Position numbers and translations under genes: made by a program. A stretch of DNA of 16,756 bases, from the IMG/VR virus record IMGVR_UViG_2703719347_000008; one strand, 5' to 3'. The DNA is from a virus (taxonomy: Duplodnaviria > Heunggongvirae > Uroviricota > Caudoviricetes). Under the pieces are notes generated by a model. That model did no database searches and had not been told where the DNA came from. It saw only the letters and a list, made by a program, of their open reading frames with translations. Shown piece after piece: positions 1-13,297 of this stretch. Numbering within the stretch: position 1 is the stretch's first letter; every line of letters starts with the position of its first letter.

Positions 1-1143
1 TCATACTGCTTTTTTACCAACAACGATCCACTCTTTGCCGCGGTCATCATTGTATATGTCAGTCATTTTCATTGTTTTGTGGCCCAATAGTTTCTGAGTG
101 TCTATTCCTTGCTCACGATACAATCGCTCTGAAAGAGACCTCTGTTCATGGAAAGTCGGTGCTGTTCCTTCTTCCCAGGTAAGACCGCTTTTATCCCGTG
201 CTTTCTTGAACGTTGAAGTAAGTGTTTTGGCTGACACTTGGTCACCACGACTAGCCTGTGAGGTGCTATGGCGAAAATGAACAAGATATTTACTCACCAC
301 AGCATCTCTACATTTTGAAATAACATCACTCAGAGTAATATTTAACGCCTCATTTCTGAGAGAAAGGGGAATGGCTAAACGAGTTCCTGTTTTCTCCTGC
401 TCAATATGCAGCATATCATCCCATACATCCGAAAACTTCATATTGCAAATATCCCCGAGGCGTTGCCCTGTTACAATGGCAAGCAACATTCCACATTGCA
501 AATAAGGTTGTTGTTGTTCGGCGGATGTATAAATAGCCTCCCATTCCTCCAGAGATAGCCTTTGTCTGCTTATCTTATTTCGTGGCTGTTTCGTTGCTTG
601 GGCAGGGTTGTATCCCGGAGGAACGTGACCAGCATGTTGAGCCTCTTTAAAAACATCTATTAGTACCATGCGTACAACTTGAGCCATCCTGTTATGACCC
701 TCTGCCTTAACAGCATCTGTTATTTCGGAAATATCAAGTGCTGTTATATCTTTTAGATATTGCATACCACAATGCTCACGAAAAAGACGAATTGGTTTAG
801 CTTTCTGTCGAAAAGAGTTTGGGCGCAGTTCGTTGTGTTTCAATCTTTCCTCCTGCACCAATTCATATTTGTCGAGCCATGAAGAAACTGTAATATCCGT
901 GCGGTTTCCTTTCATGCGAGCCAGACGCTCGTTAATACCAAGGATCTGCCTGGTGCGCTGCTCTGCAATAATCGTATTTGCTTCACTTGCCACCTGCTTT
1001 GCTTCAGCTTCGTCCGTGCCGAGGCTATGAAAACGACCAGAGATAGGGTGTTTGTATTGCCAGTAAACCTTTCCGGTACGTTTATCAAGTTTGCAATATA
1101 GGTTTGGAATAGTGATTTTATGGGTACGCGGTCTAGCTGCCAT
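1..1143 (-). CDS. int: Phage integrase, tyrosine recombinase family
   Basis: 380-aa ORF on minus strand; C-terminal region (LGHKTMKMTDIY) fits the His/Tyr catalytic end of tyrosine recombinases; sits at prophage end directly downstream of an Xis-like gene with 11-nt overlap. Stop codon is at the window edge, so no att site is visible. Confidence 0.9.
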   Translation of the reverse strand: MAARPRTHKITIPNLYCKLDKRTGKVYWQYKHPISGRFHSLGTDEAEAKQVASEANTIIAEQRTRQILGINERLARMKGNRTDITVSSWLDKYELVQEERLKHNELRPNSFRQKAKPIRLFREHCGMQYLKDITALDISEITDAVKAEGHNRMAQVVRMVLIDVFKEAQHAGHVPPGYNPAQATKQPRNKISRQRLSLEEWEAIYTSAEQQQPYLQCGMLLAIVTGQRLGDICNMKFSDVWDDMLHIEQEKTGTRLAIPLSLRNEALNITLSDVISKCRDAVVSKYLVHFRHSTSQASRGDQVSAKTLTSTFKKARDKSGLTWEEGTAPTFHEQRSLSERLYREQGIDTQKLLGHKTMKMTDIYNDDRGKEWIVVGKKAV

Positions 1144-2406: not shown

Positions 2407-2705
2407 CAGAGAGCCTCCACGTTACGGAAGCTGGTGGGGCAAATTGCTTTCAAATCGCGCATTGCTTCGAGGACATGCAGATTTATGCGCTTCTTGGTAT
2501 ATCGCTCAGTAATACGATCACACTCCTTCGCCCAAGATTTGACCTCTGCGAGAAGGGCGTCACGTTCGGTGCGTGTCTGGCGCAGAGCTACATTCGAAAC
2601 ATCGAGGACGGTAGCCAGTTCCTTGATGATTGCTGCCTGTTCTGGTGGCATAGTTTTGGCTATTTCGTACGCCTGTTTAATCAATTGATTTGCTGTCTTA
2701 GCCAT
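2406..2705 (-). CDS. Hypothetical protein (99 aa), first gene of the leftward early operon
   Basis: ATG at 2705 preceded by GGAGA with 7-nt spacer (track's 2756 start has none); stop overlaps the start of the ParB-like gene (coupled). Predicted helical, no known motif. Confidence 0.6.
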   Translation of the reverse strand: MAKTANQLIKQAYEIAKTMPPEQAAIIKELATVLDVSNVALRQTRTERDALLAEVKSWAKECDRITERYTKKRINLHVLEAMRDLKAICPTSFRNVEAL

Positions 2706-2978
2706 CTTTTGTTCTCCATCTGACGCGCTGCAACGCGTAAATTTAGGGTGCAGCAACCCAACCCATGAAAGTGGGTGAATAGCTGGTTAAAATTTCTTGC
2801 TGATGGGGGACCGCCACTGCAATGGCGGTACGTTAGTTCTCCACACAACTGGAAGCGCACTCCTTCAGTTACAAACCGATCCCCACCGGAAAGAAGGGGA
2901 ATGCGCTTCCATGTTGTGTTCTGTTCATCCTTGTCCGTAAGTTTCGTCATGTGCCGACGAGTAGAAGATAATCATAAA

Positions 2979-3015
2979 TTGCGAGTAACGCAATAGCTAT
3001 GTGCGTTACTCGCAA
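2979..3015 (-). promoter_or_regulatory. Candidate OL-like operator pair with leftward promoter (pL analogue)
   Basis: Two 15-bp sites TTGCGagtaaCGCAA (2979-2993) and gTGCGttactCGCAA (3001-3015), mutually reverse-complementary, matching the motif seen in the cI-cro intergenic region. On the minus strand a -35 TTGCGT (2993-2988) and -10 TATCTT (2970-2965) with 17-bp spacer overlap the first site. Confidence 0.45.
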
Positions 3016-3025
3016 TTTTATGGCG

Positions 3026-3050
3026 AAAAAAAAGGCCTCGAATGAGGCCT
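3026..3050 (-). terminator. Rho-independent terminator of cI
   Basis: 7-bp stem AGGCCTC/GAGGCCT with GAAT loop (3033-3050) followed on the minus strand by a run of 8 U (A-run 3026-3033 on plus), about 18 nt downstream of the cI stop. Confidence 0.7.
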
Positions 3051-3068
3051 AGTTTATGATGATGAATG

Positions 3069-3764
3069 CTATCCATGCCGTTTAAAGGACTGAGACTGGC
3101 TTATTAAAACCTTTCCATAGATATAGAATCTGTGTTCATTCTCTTTAGTTATATTCCATTCTCTATAACGAGGGTTATCAGAGATGACTAGCAGTTGGTC
3201 TGGTATCATCTGCAGGCGTTTAACATAAACTTTTCCATCAAAACCAAAGACGTAAATCCCATCCCCATCGAACTCATTGATAGTTACGTCCACAAAGATT
3301 AGGTCGCCAGGCTCAATCGTTGAGGCCATGCTATCACCGCGAACGTTGATGACCTTTACTCCAGATGGAGTCCTGCCACCAAACATTGCCAATGCCTGAT
3401 CATTGCTGAACTCGATAGCATGAATGACATCTATGACGTCACTACCGTGTATATGTCCTGCCCCGGCGCTTGCGCTCACATCAAGTACCTCGACTCTGTA
3501 TACATCCACATCCTTTACGGGAGATGCATATTTTTTACTGTTTATATGTACAGTAGTATCATTTTCGTCAGAGGTAAATAGGTCAGGTACACTTACGCTT
3601 AAAGCTTGAGCAAGTCGGTTAAGTGTCTGTTCTGAAAACTGCTTTTGTTTACCAGTTTCAAGCCTGGAAATATTGGCAGCATCAACGCCCACAGCTTCTG
3701 CAAGCTCTGCGATTTTAATGTTCTTCGCTAAGCGAAGTTGTCGTATGCGAGATCCTATTTTCAT
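3069..3764 (-). CDS. cI: CI-like repressor (N-terminal HTH plus C-terminal S24/LexA-type autopeptidase domain)
   Basis: 231 aa; N-terminus IRQLRLAKNIKIAELAEAVGVDAANISRLETGK is an XRE-type HTH; C-terminal GDSM (Ser nucleophile) and downstream VKRL Lys are the S24 catalytic dyad pattern; divergent from a Cro-like gene. Confidence 0.9.
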   Translation of the reverse strand: MKIGSRIRQLRLAKNIKIAELAEAVGVDAANISRLETGKQKQFSEQTLNRLAQALSVSVPDLFTSDENDTTVHINSKKYASPVKDVDVYRVEVLDVSASAGAGHIHGSDVIDVIHAIEFSNDQALAMFGGRTPSGVKVINVRGDSMASTIEPGDLIFVDVTINEFDGDGIYVFGFDGKVYVKRLQMIPDQLLVISDNPRYREWNITKENEHRFYIYGKVLISQSQSFKRHG

Positions 3765-3770
3765 TCACTC

Positions 3771-3847
3771 ATTACATGTTGTTTTTGCGTTTCGTGCAAA
3801 GCAACTTGCGCAATTCGCTAGCGTGGAATAGCATGCGTAATACGCAA
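3771..3847. promoter_or_regulatory. Divergent PRM/PR promoter region with three operator-like sites
   Basis: Sites TTGCGtttcgTGCAA (3785-3799), TTGCGcaattCGCTA (3806-3820), aTGCGtaataCGCAA (3833-3847). Rightward promoter: -35 TTGCGC (3806-3811), 17-bp spacer, -10 TAGCAT (3829-3834). Leftward promoter on minus strand: -35 TTGCAC (3799-3794), 17-bp spacer, -10 TGTAAT (3776-3771), ending a few nt before the cI ATG (near-leaderless, as for lambda PRM). Confidence 0.55.
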
Positions 3848-3861
3848 AAATAGGAGGCGTT

Positions 3862-7126: not shown

Positions 7127-8107
7127 ATGAGAGCACTACTAACCCCTGAGATTGCCCCACGCATGGGCGTTGTTCTGCTTCGCCCAGGTGCTGATCTCAT
7201 GCCGATGTTCAGGAGAGGGCGGGTACTGATTGAGCCTGCACCGGAAAAATACAGCGACTATGCAACCGGCGTCATTCCTCCCGCTACGCAGCCACTGGCA
7301 GAAGACCCAGTTTTGATACCAGTACTCGAAAACAAAGACGTCATTCTGCGCGCGGGTGGTATTAGCTCGCTGGAGGCCGAGCTGGAGCGTCGTTTTGAAT
7401 GCCAGTATCCCCACGGCTCATGGCACAGCGAAAATTTTACGCTGTTCCGGCATGAGCCTGGCAGCATCCGCCTTTGCTGGGCCTGCGATAACCTGCTGCG
7501 TGATCAGTACACAGAGACGCTGGCAGGCATTGCGCGTGAGAACCTGGTATCCTGGCTGATAACGGTCATCCGCTCACAGCTGGGGTTCAACGAAGACCAT
7601 CAACTGACGATCCCGGAGTTGTGCTGGTGGCTGGTGATAAACAATCTGGCGCACGTCATCCCTGAATCGCTGGCCCGGAAAGCCCTGCGATTGCCGGAAA
7701 TAAAGCATCAACCAGTGATGAAGGAGAGCGATATTGTGCCGGAGCCAGCGGCGAGCGAAGTGGTACAGAAAAAGATTCTCGGTCTTCGCGTAGATCCTGA
7801 AACGCCGGAATCATTCATGCTGCGACCAAAGCGCCGCCGCTGGGTAAACGAGAGCTGGACGCGCTGGGTTAAGTCCCAGCAGTGTGTCTGCTGTAACAAA
7901 CCAGCAGATGATCCCCATCACCTGATAGGCCACGGACAAGGTGGAATGGGAACAAAAGCGCATGACCTGTTTGTGTTGCCGCTTTGCAGAGCACATCACG
8001 ACGAGTTGCACGCTGACACCGTGGCATTTGAGGAGAAGTACGGCTCACAGCTTGAGCTGCTGTTTCGATTTCTGGATCGTTCGCTGGCAATTGGCGTGCT
8101 GGCATAG
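7127..8107 (+). CDS. DUF968-domain protein (Cys/His-rich HNH-like C-terminus; YdfU/NinH-region type)
   Basis: 326 aa; C-terminal CVCCNKPADDPHHLIGHGQGG...LPLCRAHHDELH is the Cys/His cluster typical of the DUF968 family found between the nin region and Q in lambdoid prophages. Confidence 0.65.
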   Translation: MRALLTPEIAPRMGVVLLRPGADLMPMFRRGRVLIEPAPEKYSDYATGVIPPATQPLAEDPVLIPVLENKDVILRAGGISSLEAELERRFECQYPHGSWHSENFTLFRHEPGSIRLCWACDNLLRDQYTETLAGIARENLVSWLITVIRSQLGFNEDHQLTIPELCWWLVINNLAHVIPESLARKALRLPEIKHQPVMKESDIVPEPAASEVVQKKILGLRVDPETPESFMLRPKRRRWVNESWTRWVKSQQCVCCNKPADDPHHLIGHGQGGMGTKAHDLFVLPLCRAHHDELHADTVAFEEKYGSQLELLFRFLDRSLAIGVLA

Positions 8108-8120
8108 TGGAGAACGCATA

Positions 8121-8699
8121 ATGATTAACCCGTCCGAGGTTGGAAAAGCTGGTGAAATGGTCAGGCTGAAAACGCTGGAGGCCATCTGGATTCAGGGGAA
8201 GCTGCGCATGTGGGGCCGCTGGTCTTACATCGGCGGCGGTAGTGGCGGCAATATGTTTAACCAGTTACTGGCTTCCGGGAAAGTCACTAAAACAGCCATC
8301 AACGAAGCATTACGCCGGATGAAGAAGTCTGGCATCTCGAAGCCTGAGCTTGAGGCGTTTTTTCGTGAAATACTCGCGGGGAAAAACAAAAGCGGCCTGG
8401 CCTTCTGTACAGACGATGAAGGACTGCTGATTGATAAGGTACTGGGGGCAGTCCTTATTACGGGTGGTCACAAAGAGCTGTATCACCTGCTGGTGGAGCA
8501 TTACCGGTTACGGAAGAGCAAACGCCGCATAGCGGAAGAGCTCTATGAAAAGCATCCTGACTGGTGCTTTATGACCTGTAGGAGAAGAGTTGATGCATGG
8601 ATAAGTTTGGCAGAATCGATGCTGTACGCACCAATGTGTGACGCATTCGGCACAAATCGCGACAGATTTTACTTGCAAAGTGAGCCAGAAACTGCTTGA
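8121..8699 (+). CDS. Q: Late-gene antiterminator Q (P22 gp23-like family)
   Basis: ATG at 8121 with GGAG 8 nt upstream (track ORF 7941 is an in-frame upstream extension overlapping DUF968); WGRW...CTDDEGLLID...YHLLVEHY resembles the WGAW...CCDDDAMII...LHDLLVDYY pattern of P22 gp23; sits just upstream of a terminator and the lysis cassette. Confidence 0.6.
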   Translation: MINPSEVGKAGEMVRLKTLEAIWIQGKLRMWGRWSYIGGGSGGNMFNQLLASGKVTKTAINEALRRMKKSGISKPELEAFFREILAGKNKSGLAFCTDDEGLLIDKVLGAVLITGGHKELYHLLVEHYRLRKSKRRIAEELYEKHPDWCFMTCRRRVDAWISLAESMLYAPMCDAFGTNRDRFYLQSEPETA

Positions 8700-8750
8700 A
8701 TTGTGATAGGCTCGGGACGTTAAAGCGAACTGAGCAGCAGAACAAAACAT

Positions 8751-8781
8751 AAACCCGCCAATGAGCGGGTTTTTTTATTTT
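8751..8781. terminator. Bidirectional rho-independent terminator (tR'-like for Q side; also terminates the convergent minus-strand gene)
   Basis: Stem ACCCGC (8753-8758) / GCGGGT (8765-8770) with 6-nt loop, flanked by an A-rich run upstream and TTTTTTATTTT (8771-8781) downstream; lies between the two convergent genes. Confidence 0.65.
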
Positions 8782-9371
8782 ACTAACTGAGCAATCATTG
8801 ATTGATAAGCACAATAGGAACCATAAGCAAATATGAAGATGGAACCGGCGCCGCATATACAAGCTACAGCATTTATTGTATGCCCGAGCCAAAGATAAAA
8901 TTTTTTGGTTCCAAGATATGATGATGCGAAGCAGCACTGTGAGAAATAGGATAAGCCCGAACAAAGTCCGGCCAGAACGACTCCTCCACAGAAAAGATAG
9001 AGAGCTGATGCGATAGCAGACGCAGCTTCAGCTGAGGAATTCTTGTTCCAAATATTTCCTAAAAAAGCCAACAGAGCGATTGCTGCACCTCCATTCATTA
9101 TTAGAAATGTTCTGCAAGCATTCGCACCAATACTGATAGCAGCTTTGAAAGACTCTATTTGAAAGCTATTTTCAATTTTCATTATTTCCAATTGGGTGGA
9201 GTTTTGATGTTTAATCCCTTCGAGAGTTAAAGCATTAGCCTCTGGCTGCTCTGTCACATCTATTTCTGAAAGATAGTGAAGTAAATTATCGACCGGGATG
9301 GTTTCTGAACCTTGTTGCTTTACATCACTTACATCTTTTTTGATCAATTCCAAAAGTTCTGAACTGGTCAT
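8775..9371 (-). CDS. Hypothetical membrane protein (N-terminal soluble domain, about 3 C-terminal TM helices); AT-rich moron
   Basis: ATG at 9371 preceded by GGAGCAAGAA (track's 9440 start is TTG with no Shine-Dalgarno); C-terminal hydrophobic stretches IALLAFLGNIW, ASALYLFCGGVVLAGL, AVACICGAGSIFIFAYG; about 35-40% GC by spot count of one 60-nt line against 55-60% in neighbours; antisense to the late transcript. Confidence 0.6.
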   Translation of the reverse strand: MTSSELLELIKKDVSDVKQQGSETIPVDNLLHYLSEIDVTEQPEANALTLEGIKHQNSTQLEIMKIENSFQIESFKAAISIGANACRTFLIMNGGAAIALLAFLGNIWNKNSSAEAASAIASALYLFCGGVVLAGLCSGLSYFSQCCFASSYLGTKKFYLWLGHTINAVACICGAGSIFIFAYGSYCAYQSMIAQLVK

Positions 9372-9500
9372 TTCTTGCTCCAGTGTTAAATCGAACGTAA
9401 AGATCCTAAGTATACCCTTAGAAGTACATACGGTATTCAAGTAAATAGAATTTATCTTTCCCCTCGATTGAGAGGACTCACAGCAAAAAGAGGGGGCTAA

Positions 9501-9896
9501 ATGTCCGATCCTGTTTCTGGCACAACGGTAGCTGCTGGCGGGCTGATGGGGGCCAGTATGTTCGGCCTTGCAACTGGCATTGATTATGGCGTGGTATTTG
9601 GTGCGTTCGCTGGGGCAGTGTTCTATGTCGCGACGGCGGTAAATATCAGCCGCCTAAAGCTGGTGGGCTACTTCATAACTTCATTCATCTTCGGTGTGAT
9701 TGGTGCTCCTCTGCTGGGGTCTTACTTCTCAAAGTGGACGGGGTACAGTGACAGGCCGCTTGATGCTCTCGGTGCTGTAATCGTTGCAGCAATAGCCATT
9801 AAATTGCTGACGTTCGTTAACAGTCAGGATCTGGGTAGCCTGTTTGGGATTCTCTCTCGCTTACGTGGAGGAGGGACAAGCAATGGTAACAAGTGA
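9501..9896 (+). CDS. Putative holin (multi-TM, Gly-rich)
   Basis: First gene after Q region; GAGGGGG Shine-Dalgarno; 131 aa with at least 3 hydrophobic helices and a charged C-terminal tail; immediately upstream of the endolysin. Confidence 0.55.
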   Translation: MSDPVSGTTVAAGGLMGASMFGLATGIDYGVVFGAFAGAVFYVATAVNISRLKLVGYFITSFIFGVIGAPLLGSYFSKWTGYSDRPLDALGAVIVAAIAIKLLTFVNSQDLGSLFGILSRLRGGGTSNGNK

Positions 9897-10794: not shown

Positions 10795-11103
10795 ATGCAA
10801 CTGAAAATATGTGTGGTCGCTTTTGCGCTTCTTCTTTCTGCGTGTGATGCCAGCCCTGAACCTGCCAAATCGACTATGGCTGTATCATCCCAACTTTCTG
10901 CAGATGCAGACCGGATTAGCGTGACAAAAATGTCTGAGTTCCGCGATGGGCTTGCATATGGAAATTGGCGGGGTGTTTATCTCATTCAGGATAAGCAGAC
11001 CGGACAGGAATACATCGGTATCAGCGGTATTGGGATTTCCGAGGTAGGTTCGCATAGCCAGATGGTTGGCAAGGTTCCGCAATCAGTAAGGGATGAACGA
11101 TGA
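10795..11103 (+). CDS. Lipoprotein of unknown function in the lysis cassette (predicted inner-membrane retained)
   Basis: Signal peptide MQLKICVVAFALLLSAC with canonical lipobox L-S-A-C and Asp at +2 (CDAS); start is 2 nt after the endolysin stop; ATGA overlap with the next gene. Confidence 0.6.
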   Translation: MQLKICVVAFALLLSACDASPEPAKSTMAVSSQLSADADRISVTKMSEFRDGLAYGNWRGVYLIQDKQTGQEYIGISGIGISEVGSHSQMVGKVPQSVRDER

Positions 11104-11375
11104 GCTTAGAAATTATTGCTGGGCTGGTGGTCGTAATCCTGGGCACTATCGCTGGTGCATTCGGCATTGGTCACGCTCGCGGGACCAATAAGGCGGAAGC
11201 CAAAGCCGATCAGCAACGTACCGAAGAAAACGCCGCCGCCACCATCGCCGCGGCAGAACGTAAGGCGGAAGTTGTGAAAGGGGCCAGTAATGTACAGCAG
11301 ACTGTTAGCCATATGCCTGATGACGATGTTGATCGGGAGCTGCGCGAAAAGTTTACCCGCCCCGGTAGTCGTTGA
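11100..11375 (+). CDS. i-spanin-like protein (Rz-like; N-terminal TM plus charged periplasmic helix)
   Basis: N-terminal TM LEIIAGLVVVILGTIAGAFGIG followed by Ala/Lys/Glu-rich segment; 3' end overlapped in +1 frame by a lipoprotein gene, the classic Rz/Rz1 arrangement. Only 91 aa, shorter than typical Rz. Confidence 0.5.
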   Translation: MSLEIIAGLVVVILGTIAGAFGIGHARGTNKAEAKADQQRTEENAAATIAAAERKAEVVKGASNVQQTVSHMPDDDVDRELREKFTRPGSR

Positions 11376-11508
11376 TACGGCCTGCAGCTGGGTTCGCATT
11401 ATCTACCTGACCGACCACGATATCGACGTGCTGGATAGGCAGACCAAGCGCGACATTCTAACCCACAACAGAACAGTTAAAAGAAACTGTAACCAACTAA
11501 AAATGTGA
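11290..11508 (+). CDS. o-spanin-like outer-membrane lipoprotein (Rz1-like)
   Basis: Signal peptide with lipobox LIGSC followed by Ala at +2 (outer-membrane sorting), Pro-containing mature region with Cys residues; overlaps the i-spanin-like gene out of frame; AAAGGGG Shine-Dalgarno. Confidence 0.45.
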   Translation: MYSRLLAICLMTMLIGSCAKSLPAPVVVDTACSWVRIIYLTDHDIDVLDRQTKRDILTHNRTVKRNCNQLKM

Positions 11509-11520
11509 CGCAAGTCCCAA

Positions 11521-11597
11521 TTATCCATTGCGTTGCTAAGTGTTACAAAATCCATTGAATTATGATGTGTGTTTACACTCACATAGCAATGGATATT
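11521..11597. promoter_or_regulatory. Repeat-flanked promoter region of the AT-rich four-gene cassette
   Basis: TTATCCATTGC (11521-11531), ATCCATTGA (11550-11558) and inverted copy GCAATGGATAT (11587-11597) bracket candidate -35/-10 elements (TTTACA 11572-11577, 17-bp spacer, ATTTAT 11595-11600) immediately before the first cassette gene. Confidence 0.35.
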
Positions 11598-11598
11598 T

Positions 11599-12213
11599 AT
11601 GGCTACTTACAAATATTATAATATACAGATGCTACCTCTAACCAATAGTAAAAAACATATTGGTAAAGAGGGTTATATTAAATTATTCCAGCATCTGGGA
11701 GACAAACTTCGCAAAGTTTTGTCATCGGAAGGTGATTTAAGAAATATCGCTGTTCCATTGAGGAATGATTTCTTTTTTGCTCCGTATGAAATAAATGCTA
11801 GAGAGGACATGGTTTATGGTCGTTTTTTAAAGTTTGACAAGGTAGATGTTGTTAGAAAAACTATTAGCAGAGTTCAGACTTATGCAGCTGGTTTTGGCGA
11901 GTCTAGTAAGATTTATGAGTATAGGTTTGTATTTGATCCTGTATTGCATATCCTTGCTATCGAAGATAGCCCTTCATTACCTAGCGCAAGTGTTTTATAT
12001 AAGGTGCTTAATGAGGTGTTTAAAGATGCGCGCAGGAAATTATATCCATCCTTTCGCATGAGTGTTGATGAATTAACATCTTCTGCTAGTCTAGATAATG
12101 TTATAAAAGAGTCTAAAGGATATTATTCCTTTAAAACAGAAATAACTTTCTCTAACTCTAATGATTTTATTGAAGGACTAGAAGAATTGCTAGAGGGGTT
12201 GAGGCTGAAATGA
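11599..12213 (+). CDS. Hypothetical cytoplasmic protein (204 aa), cassette gene A
   Basis: AT-rich ORF (about 28-30% GC by spot count of one 60-nt line); no Walker, HEPN, nuclease or HTH motif recognisable; stop overlaps the start of gene B (ATGA). Confidence 0.6.
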   Translation: MATYKYYNIQMLPLTNSKKHIGKEGYIKLFQHLGDKLRKVLSSEGDLRNIAVPLRNDFFFAPYEINAREDMVYGRFLKFDKVDVVRKTISRVQTYAAGFGESSKIYEYRFVFDPVLHILAIEDSPSLPSASVLYKVLNEVFKDARRKLYPSFRMSVDELTSSASLDNVIKESKGYYSFKTEITFSNSNDFIEGLEELLEGLRLK

Positions 12214-12533
12214 AAGATAAAGGGATTGATAAGCTGGAGCATAAAGAGTCATCAGACAAAGACTCAATAATGACTGACGTTAGTACAATCGCGTTGGTTT
12301 ATGCAGGTTTATCATGCAAGTTTGGGAATACTGAAATATCTTATAAAGACAAAAGCAATAAGAAAAAAGTTTTCAAAATGGCCGATTATCCTGTAAGAAA
12401 ACGTGTGTCTGAGTCTATGAAAAAAAGGGCATCAATTTTAGACTATTATTATGATGTGAAAAACACAATTAATGCAGCTAATAATGAGTCCAGAACAGGA
12501 AGTGGATTGCTAAAGAAAATTAGAAAAGGATAG
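12210..12533 (+). CDS. Hypothetical Lys-rich small protein (107 aa), cassette gene B
   Basis: GAGG Shine-Dalgarno; translationally coupled to genes A and C (1-nt gap to C); one short hydrophobic segment TIALVYAGLSCKF. Confidence 0.55.
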   Translation: MKDKGIDKLEHKESSDKDSIMTDVSTIALVYAGLSCKFGNTEISYKDKSNKKKVFKMADYPVRKRVSESMKKRASILDYYYDVKNTINAANNESRTGSGLLKKIRKG

Positions 12534-12534
12534 T

Positions 12535-13164
12535 ATGATGAAAGTTGGTGGATGGGACATTAATCATGAGAATATACTTAAAATAATTAAGTCTATTCCA
12601 TATGTTGGTGCAATTTTTATCATTGCCAACTTTTATGCTAATTCTGGAGTTTTATCAGAAAGGAAGCGAATTGCAAATTTCAAAAATTGGGTGCGGAGGG
12701 TACTTTCTGGTGTTTTATTTACTTTTGTTTTAAGTTTGTTGATTGTGACATTTTTCAGAGATGGGCTTTACAATCCCAACTCAAACACTGCAGGTCTCGA
12801 CGCAACCCTTGTTGCTTTATCCATATTTCCGAGCATATTAGGTTTTGGCATTGGTGTGTTTGTTGTTGTTTTTGCCCTTCCGAATCAATTCATTGAGAAA
12901 ATAAATCTTATCAAACATAACGGTAAAAATAAAACATTTGGCGCATCGTTAATGGTTGTCGATATGGCTTATCCTCTAATGGTATATGCTGTTGTCCTGA
13001 TGGGTGAGTTTTTTCTGAAACTATTCCAGGTTGGGTTTATTACACATGTGTTGAGTATCTTTTTATTATTATATGGAATGCTGATGACTTTTGATTTAAT
13101 ATCTATGATTTTCATGACAGCGTATGCGCTTTTAGCTACGCAAGCATCAAGAAACCCTAAATAG
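12535..13164 (+). CDS. Hypothetical polytopic membrane protein (about 5 TM), cassette gene C
   Basis: AAAGGA Shine-Dalgarno; five long hydrophobic segments, e.g. VLSGVLFTFVLSLLIVTFF and ITHVLSIFLLLYGMLMTFDLISMIF; no known motif. Confidence 0.65.
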   Translation: MMKVGGWDINHENILKIIKSIPYVGAIFIIANFYANSGVLSERKRIANFKNWVRRVLSGVLFTFVLSLLIVTFFRDGLYNPNSNTAGLDATLVALSIFPSILGFGIGVFVVVFALPNQFIEKINLIKHNGKNKTFGASLMVVDMAYPLMVYAVVLMGEFFLKLFQVGFITHVLSIFLLLYGMLMTFDLISMIFMTAYALLATQASRNPK

Positions 13165-13297
13165 TAGTATTTTTAGTTCGTTCTTTGGCTCAATGATTTT
13201 GTCGATACAGCAGCCAAGTTCGATAACTAAAGTAATCAATAGAGAATCTTTGCAGTGTGTCAATAAAACGTAGGAAAGGTAAGTTAAGGCACTGCAG

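Follow-up and report, generated by a model that had tools for sequence, protein, structure and literature searches.

An AT-rich cassette with an antisense inner-membrane protein gene in the Q-to-holin interval of a lambdoid prophage

Introduction

Why would a prophage keep a gene that lies head-on in the path of its own late transcription? This question is raised by a 16,756-nucleotide stretch of caudoviral DNA (IMG/VR record IMGVR_UViG_2703719347_000008; this whole stretch is referred to below as the window), in which a gene for a predicted membrane protein of 198 amino acids (aa) is encoded on the minus strand between a Q-like late antiterminator gene and the first holin gene. Here we describe the inserted cassette that carries this gene and the sizeable protein family to which its product belongs. 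We then weigh what the protein may do, and tentatively favour a role in protecting the lysogen against other phages.

Results

An inserted cassette occupies the Q-to-holin interval

Klebsiella phages match the window at positions 8602-8778 and 9451-9600 with 87-98% identity in Megablast comparisons, and do not match the stretch between; their matches end at 8773-8778 and restart at 9451. The empty site is found in E. coli 219, in which the same Q and holins are only 156 bp apart. The tR' terminator hairpin and the conserved holin leader are present in this interval, together with a second terminator hairpin. Aligned to this site, the insertion in the window replaces about 35 bp of the E. coli 219 interval, including the second hairpin. 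Together with base composition, these alignments place the inserted AT-rich cassette at about 8779..9451 (672 bp). The initial annotation had extended the feature to 9480. This border must be moved inwards, since cassette-specific DNA stops near 9451 and positions 9452-9500 (plus strand) represent the holin leader, with its Shine-Dalgarno sequence GAGGGGG, which is kept in phages with and without the cassette.

The cassette differs from its surroundings in composition, with 38.8% GC and 32% GC at third codon positions (GC3), as compared to 50.6% GC in Q, 52.3% in the holin gene, and a GC3 of 53-58% in Q, holin and endolysin. Three properties expected of a moron are thus found at this locus: presence or absence among close relatives at one place (E. 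coli 219, the Klebsiella phages and Klebsiella phage 1 LV-2017), a composition unlike that of the flanking phage genes (38.8% versus 50-52% GC), and a predicted terminator of its own (the hairpin at 8751-8772, read on the minus strand). Judged by these sequence properties, the feature at 8779-9451 is a textbook moron, that is, an autonomous cargo cassette.

In Klebsiella phage 1 LV-2017 the same place between Q and holin holds a different, sense-oriented cargo gene resembling TciA. Because the site is empty in one relative and filled with different cargo in another, we consider the Q-holin interval a cargo hotspot. This agrees with the cargo slot that had been suspected here from the window alone, and nmpC of prophage DLP12 provides a precedent.

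Two further observations concern these related loci. The E. coli 219 interval (locus 1591-1746) has two tandem terminator hairpins after its putative pR' promoter, and the window has a single terminator between pR' and holin, since the cassette stands in place of the second hairpin. The 1 LV-2017 slot (locus 2680-3860) holds, in addition to the TciA-like gene, a small membrane open reading frame (ORF). Beyond these two lie some 350 nt of GC-rich non-coding sequence with a strong terminator at the end (about 3480-3790); this sequence appears structured and might represent an RNA gene.

The cassette encodes a conserved protein

The minus-strand ORF at 8775..9440 is open from a TTG codon (221 aa). 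We took the ATG at 9371 as the start, which yields a predicted inner-membrane protein of 198 aa (coding sequence 8775..9371, minus strand; listed in RefSeq as 'hypothetical protein', WP_057077933.1). Direct reading of the sequence places a Shine-Dalgarno GGAG at 9378..9381 on the minus strand, 6 nt before this ATG, and the initial methionine of the 198-aa protein is kept in at least 90% of homologues. The 34 close clusters are 196-202 aa long with 42-98% identity, come from Klebsiella, Kosakonia, Enterobacter, Phytobacter, Pectobacterium, Pantoea and Citrobacter, and are all annotated as hypothetical.

Between these relatives the rate of nonsynonymous substitution (dN, 0.1-0.3) is far below that of synonymous substitution (dS), which is saturated in most pairs. 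By this measure the protein is under purifying selection. A comparison of substitutions among relatives further indicates that the N-terminal domain changes 1.4-1.8 times faster than the transmembrane (TM) part.

The exact 198-aa protein is present on 390 contigs from Enterobacteriaceae, mostly Klebsiella. Of 5426 complete E. coli genomes, 9 have the full segment 8600-9600, and strain 5CRE51 has at icd a prophage that shares 99.91% identity with the window. The arrangement is therefore not the product of a chimeric assembly, an outcome that had been named as one that would overturn the initial annotation.

A widespread family without a characterised relative

A profile search of 1.84 billion representative sequences recovered 4163 clusters (counted at 50% identity) at E<=1e-3, 1861 at 1e-10 and 162 at 1e-30. 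Of the 150 best clusters listed, almost all match over their full length, at about 180-230 aa. Members come from Gamma-, Beta- and Alphaproteobacteria, Nitrospirota, Planctomycetota, Verrucomicrobiota and other phyla. We defined the family by a match over the whole length (about 185-210 aa), invariance of N93-G94 and F181, and near-invariance of E73, G82, Y142, Q145 and G184, and the window protein shows all of these in the alignments. Only one of 50,697 GenBank phage records encodes a relative, that of Paraburkholderia phage IPK, with 28% identity.

None of the searches connected the family to a protein of known function. Pfam, PHROG, PADLOC and NCBIfam returned nothing significant for the window protein, including zero matches among the 5027 defence-protein models of PADLOC-DB v2.0.0. 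Across 36 diverse family members, Pfam and PADLOC gave scattered chance matches, those to PADLOC being isolated and at E 0.004 or weaker. Structure comparison with Foldseek was not significant against BFVD (best E 0.036) or, using the better model, against PDB (best E 0.19), and the matches to NINJ1 and ORAI, also not significant, were left unused. When the 36-member profile was aligned by hhalign to the superinfection exclusion proteins of P22, probabilities were 2% for SieA and 0.2% for SieB. We found no Pfam match to the SLATT/DUF4231 domain in family members and no recurrent signalling-enzyme neighbour (CD-NTase, TIR or cyclase), nor did any holin or antiholin family of Pfam or PHROG match. 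A literature search gave no match by accession and no description of this gene in work on Q-holin hotspots.

The roles first suggested for the protein (superinfection exclusion, abortive infection or a membrane toxin) thus gain no support from homology in PADLOC, Pfam, PHROG, NCBIfam, PDB or BFVD, or from the comparison with SieA and SieB. The 198-aa protein belongs to a sizeable family without a characterised relative, and it is in this that its novelty would lie.

Two candidate similarities were rejected along the way. The NCBIfam model NF041501 scored 12.7 bits (E 0.046), below its cut-off of 150. Weak matches of residues 1-47 to calmodulin PDB profiles (E 0.1 or weaker) could be read as an EF-hand, but Gly and Ile are spaced by 4 instead of the expected 2, and conservation of the acidic ligands is lacking.

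A helical protein with a near-invariant first transmembrane segment

Kyte-Doolittle hydropathy marks three hydrophobic stretches in the 198-aa protein, at about 86-108, 116-141 and 160-187, preceded by an N-terminal region of 83 aa with a net charge of -8. The predicted topology has the N-terminus inside, because R87 and K156-K157 then fall on the cytoplasmic side. We accordingly divide the protein into an acidic, helical, cytoplasmic N-domain (residues 1 to about 83) and the segments TM1 (86-108), TM2 (116-141) and TM3 (160-187). An AlphaFold2 model built on a 99-sequence alignment is all-helical (predicted local distance difference test, pLDDT, 84.9; predicted template modelling score, pTM, 0.60), with helices at 3-19, 27-36, 43-109, 114-150 and 157-196, the third of which continues from the cytoplasm directly into TM1. 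Periplasmic exposure in this topology is limited to a loop of 8 aa and a tail some 10 aa long. The ORF, the hydropathy profile and the conserved homologues all agree with the antisense gene of 198 codons that had been described at the outset, with a soluble N-terminal part and about three TM helices.

TM1 is near-invariant and contains the invariant N93-G94 motif (NGGAAIALLAFLGN). In the alignments N93, G94 and F181 are invariant, and E73, G82, G95, A96, A99-F103, F127, G130, Y142, Q145 and G184 are near-invariant. The family signature reads EMF(K/R)SVIxxGxxAxKSxxLxNGGAAVALLAFxGN, with NGGAAxALLAFxGN as the TM1 motif. No conserved His, Asp, Ser or Cys of the type found in enzymes was seen in the family alignments. 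The pattern is one of small-residue helix packing combined with a polar cluster at the cytoplasmic face of the membrane.

Prophage relatives lie antisense to lysis cassettes

The location of the gene in the window is repeated in many other prophages. Among 40 mapped loci of the prophage type, 24 have the order DUF968 - Q - [gene, antisense] - holin(s) - endolysin - spanin, which does not vary in enterobacterial prophages, and two further loci have this order truncated on one side. The Q proteins of these loci belong to three PHROG families (DUF1133/Q21-like, PF03589/Q-lambda-like and unassigned) and the holins to at least three families. The same interval sometimes holds other cargo as well, such as an N6_N4 methylase or an NS-type endonuclease. 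In P2-like prophages of the Pseudomonas type the family gene lies antisense and convergent just after Rz/Rz1, in what may be called the bor position. In every mapped prophage locus with an identified lysis cassette, the family gene is antisense to that cassette. Paraburkholderia phage IPK presents a third placement, between the integrase gene and a HicAB module.

We could not find a conserved partner gene. Clustering by blast of the four neighbours on either side revealed none outside the phage lysis and Q genes. An all-against-all phmmer comparison of 1570 neighbour ORFs produced only spanin, endolysin, umuDC, SRAP and BrnT-like groups, and an iterative hidden Markov model (HMM) search seeded from the downstream gene of one relative (locus L046) recovered only 2 loci.

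Some chromosomal relatives are located in variable islands, alongside reverse transcriptases, TIR proteins, IS66, restriction-modification (RM) systems or MazE. Further neighbours of chromosomal relatives include AriA, PD-Lambda-5_B, toxin-antitoxin (TA) modules and insertion sequence (IS) elements, and in one case an Imm33 protein.

Two local arrangements were seen beside these general patterns. At four loci of Pseudomonas-type prophages the family gene is accompanied, just upstream, by an SRAP (YedK-like) gene and a umuDC-like pair, and all of these make up a small block of antisense cargo by the lysis cassette. In a metagenomic island (L138, 6203-7570) a family member is preceded, at a distance of 85 bp, by a co-directional gene for a TIR_2 protein, and a reverse transcriptase and a DUF5677 gene lie nearby. 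This TIR association is not recurrent, being confined to two unrelated loci, in the second of which the neighbour is a different TIR protein, of the CAP12/Pycsar type.

Predicted signals for late and cassette transcription

The moron gene is convergent with the Q-like gene, and a predicted bidirectional intrinsic terminator lies between them (8751..8778). Its hairpin (8751-8772) scores on both strands, with folding energies of -12 kcal/mol on the plus strand and -14.9 kcal/mol on the minus strand (z -3.5 and -4.3), in line with the shared terminator that the initial annotation had proposed. The stop codon of the moron gene (8775-8777) and its last codon sit inside the T-tract of the terminator, and the hairpin is kept in phages that lack the cassette. 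We predict that on the plus strand it acts as tR', to be read through by Q-modified polymerase, and that on the minus strand it ends the moron transcript.

The terminator begins 52 nt after the Q stop codon. In the layout of P22, which served as our model, the roughly 135 nt that follow gene 23 accommodate the late promoter, a leader of about 58 nt and tR'. Two sigma-70 matches at 8/12 occur within 8600-8745, one of them at 8607-8635, deeper inside Q, and only the other, at 8673..8701 on the plus strand, is close enough to the hairpin at 8751. This candidate pR' consists of TTGCAA (8673-8678), a 17-nt spacer and TTGAAT (8696-8701), and its -10 hexamer covers the TGA stop codon of Q at 8697-8699. 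Both hexamers stay promoter-like in E. coli 219 and the spacer diverges. The overlap of pR' with the end of Q that had been anticipated is thus probably correct.

The promoter of the moron gene itself is less clear. It had been expected in the holin leader, and a -10-like TATACT is present at 9409..9414 on the minus strand. However, this weak candidate has no good -35, and no minus-strand sigma-70 promoter in 9372-9500 reaches the scan threshold of 9/12. In the cassettes of more distant relatives a better -10 hexamer (TACAAT, TATAAT or TAGAAT) ends 29 nt before the respective ATG. We found no operator common to the moron and the prophage immunity region, and Rfam gave no match at the gathering score. 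A plus-strand sigma-70 site at 9145-9172 is within chance expectation and was discarded.

Discussion

A possible phage-exclusion or abortive-infection protein

We propose, with a probability of roughly 40%, that the window protein is a lysogen-expressed inner-membrane protein acting in phage exclusion or abortive infection. This reading is favoured because the gene resides in cargo slots, its distribution is rare and patchy, some relatives have conflict systems as neighbours, and a faster-changing N-domain is joined to a near-invariant TM core. Furthermore, the prophage placements of the family (between Q and holin, after the spanin, and between integrase and HicAB) are classical slots for lysogen-expressed cargo.

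The proposed scheme is as follows. The cassette was inserted directly after tR', between Q and the holin gene of a lambdoid prophage at icd. Its gene would be transcribed in opposition to the late operon, starting at a weak promoter of its own within 9372-9451 and ending at the hairpin at 8751-8778. From established phage biology, pR' transcripts in a lysogen should halt at tR', leaving leftward transcription of the moron unopposed. Since the cassette lies between tR' and holin, late transcripts reach the Phage_holin_8 gene only after crossing it in antisense. After induction, Q-modified polymerase would pass tR' and cross the cassette head-on, and moron expression would be lowered by collision and antisense pairing. 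The protein itself may act at the inner membrane, shielding host and prophage from other phages through exclusion or abortive infection. Its near-invariant, small-residue-rich TM1 (NGGAAxALLAFxGN) might drive oligomerisation or pore formation, with the more variable cytoplasmic N-domain serving as sensor or regulator. In this scheme the promoter, the expression in the lysogen, the silencing by late transcription and the function are all our inferences.

Several observations weigh against such a role. Some relatives lie among housekeeping genes, being found between P5CR/DUF4384 and tilS on 81 contigs, and others adjoin genes for elongation factor P (EF-P), a phosphoenolpyruvate (PEP)-utilising protein and tyrosyl-tRNA synthetase. 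About 8-10 of 117 immediate neighbours match PADLOC models (methyltransferases and restriction endonucleases, AriA, PD-Lambda-5_B and PDC-S candidates), a count made without a control set, and as a sign of defence context these matches are suggestive only. To these is added the lack of a sigma-70 site at threshold upstream of the gene. Finally, the tiny periplasmic exposure argues against an external block of DNA entry. In the modelled topology it would better fit a membrane effect triggered from the cytoplasm.

A bolder version of the exclusion or abortive-infection proposal extends it to the whole family of more than 4000 clusters. These would be single-gene inner-membrane anti-phage effectors, in which sensing of infection by the variable cytoplasmic N-domain causes the conserved, glycine- and alanine-rich TM1 to assemble into an oligomeric pore or lesion. 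Their antisense position at the borders of lysis cassettes would let antiterminated late transcription silence the gene and so spare the phage's own lytic cycle. We hold this general form to be improbable.

Alternative functions

The alternative that survives best is a lysogenic-conversion membrane protein outside phage defence. It would raise host fitness through tolerance of envelope or membrane stress, or through immunity to membrane-damaging toxins such as pore-forming bacteriocins. The relatives on 81 contigs by tilS and those with EF-P neighbours resemble stable chromosomal genes, members occur in many phyla with no conserved partner, and one neighbour is an Imm33 protein. Moreover, the immunity genes of pore-forming colicins encode small polytopic inner-membrane proteins and lie antisense just before the lysis gene, as this gene does. 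However, no similarity to any known immunity or stress family was found, the distribution within species is rare and patchy, and the recurrence in prophage cargo slots and beside TA, RM and reverse transcriptase genes fits conflict systems at least as well. We therefore regard a conversion function of this kind as possible but somewhat unlikely.

The protein might instead modulate the lysis clock, by interacting with holin so as to cause premature lysis of cells infected by superinfecting phages (as AbiZ does) or to damp accidental holin action in the lysogen, its antisense placement coupling shut-off to late transcription. The most recurrent family context is indeed the phage lysis cassette, on either side, always antisense and in two unrelated phage types, and a small helical inner-membrane protein resembles holins and antiholins in kind. 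On the other hand, at least three unrelated holin families occur alongside and no holin is present in the chromosomal and integrase-adjacent contexts, which makes a specific holin partner unlikely. The lack of a match to holin or antiholin Pfam families adds to this, as does the fact that the flanks of lysis cassettes are generic moron slots (nmpC, bor). In addition, protein already in the membrane would outlive a transcriptional shut-off. A lysis modulator thus appears distinctly improbable.

It is very unlikely that the gene acts as a membrane toxin or addiction module to keep the prophage stable. The protein is small and hydrophobic with a glycine- and alanine-rich TM helix, and TA modules (HicAB, a BrnT-like gene, MazE) lie near some relatives. 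Nevertheless, those modules are complete by themselves, the searches revealed neither a conserved antitoxin gene nor a partner antisense RNA, and the gene is stably carried alone in many genomes, the exact protein occurring on 390 contigs. Lastly, the idea of a chance ORF or an assembly chimera, for which AT-richness and antisense position speak and nothing further, is refuted by 4163 family clusters with full-length matches, a dN far below dS, and an identical locus in 9 complete E. coli chromosomes.

Comparison with known systems

The arrangement itself, an antisense moron in the Q-holin slot, is already known from nmpC of DLP12 in E. coli K-12 and lc of phage PA-2. These occupy the same slot in the same orientation, in the order quuD(+) - nmpC(-) - essD(+) ... 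borD(-), and are likewise lysogen-expressed conversion genes crossed in antisense by late transcription; lc changes susceptibility to other phages. The products differ, in that NmpC/Lc is an outer-membrane beta-barrel porin of about 365 aa and the protein studied here a helical inner-membrane protein of 198 aa, with no sequence relation between them. A second parallel is bor of lambda and borD of DLP12, small lysogen-expressed antisense genes abutting the lysis cassette, in the very position taken by the Pseudomonas-type relatives. Bor, however, is an outer-membrane lipoprotein linked to serum resistance, without sequence or architectural likeness to the family.

P22 SieB and SieA (192 and 164 aa) are similar in size, membrane-embedded, encoded antisense in lytic operons under their own promoters, and expressed from the prophage. 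They have no detectable homology to the window protein and occupy other positions (the pL operon, and between gene 16 and mnt). The stx genes and similar cargo occupy the same hypervariable interval directly downstream of pR'/tR'. That Q-S cargo is in sense orientation, depends on Q read-through and is switched on at induction, whereas the gene described here is antisense and must use its own promoter.

Lactococcal AbiZ and lambda RexB may be functional analogues, both being small polytopic membrane proteins by which infected cells are killed or lysed too early. Neither shows sequence similarity to the family (no match in Pfam or PADLOC), and RexB needs RexA, in contrast to a family without a conserved partner. 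AbiZ is among the systems cited in one report (PMC11364771).

This gene is a good and inexpensive candidate for functional screening, as prophages carry it repeatedly in their cargo slots, its membrane motif is strictly conserved and it needs no partner gene. Should it prove to encode a defence or exclusion protein, it would represent a new single-gene membrane system and an example of self-immunity by convergent transcription; otherwise, thousands of 'hypothetical proteins' would still gain an annotation. The gene is found in clinical lineages of E. coli and Klebsiella, species in which prophage-encoded phage resistance matters for phage therapy.

Other features of the window

Upstream of the cassette lie a DUF968/HNH gene (7127-8107) and the Q-like late antiterminator gene (DUF1133/Q21-type; 8121..8699, plus strand; Pfam DUF1133 7e-93, Phage_antitermQ 7e-10). 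The Q start at 8121 follows the call of the RefSeq Prokaryotic Genome Annotation Pipeline (PGAP) in the E. coli 5CRE51 prophage, where locus positions 8522-9100 correspond to window 8121-8699. The longest Q ORF runs from a GTG at 7941 and overlaps the DUF968 gene by 167 nt; both PGAP and the annotations of Klebsiella phages place the start at the equivalent of window 8121, giving a protein of 192 aa.

Downstream, the first lysis gene (9501..9896, plus strand) encodes a Phage_holin_8 protein (Pfam 5.4e-39; 'phage holin family protein' in PGAP). It is followed by a second holin gene, a GH19 endolysin gene and an Rz-like spanin gene (11100-11375).

The prophage adjoins icd, the attachment site used by e14, with an integrase gene at window positions 1-1143 (minus strand), and a YmfL-family regulator is present.

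A second AT-rich block, with 34% GC, extends over window 11450-13200 between the spanin gene and the packaging genes. A slot upstream of the packaging module has been reported as the site of Tai defence systems (PMC11364771). The block contains a DUF4747 ORF (11599-12213; Pfam 4.7e-12, PHROG 10040) followed by ORFs at 12210-12533 and 12535-13164, and PADLOC gave no match for any of the three. DUF4747 is a single coding sequence of 261 aa in E. coli 5CRE51. Relative to that genome, 1 nt is missing from the window near 12194 and 13 nt are inserted at 12357-12369. These two changes alter the frame over about 54 codons and so split the gene.

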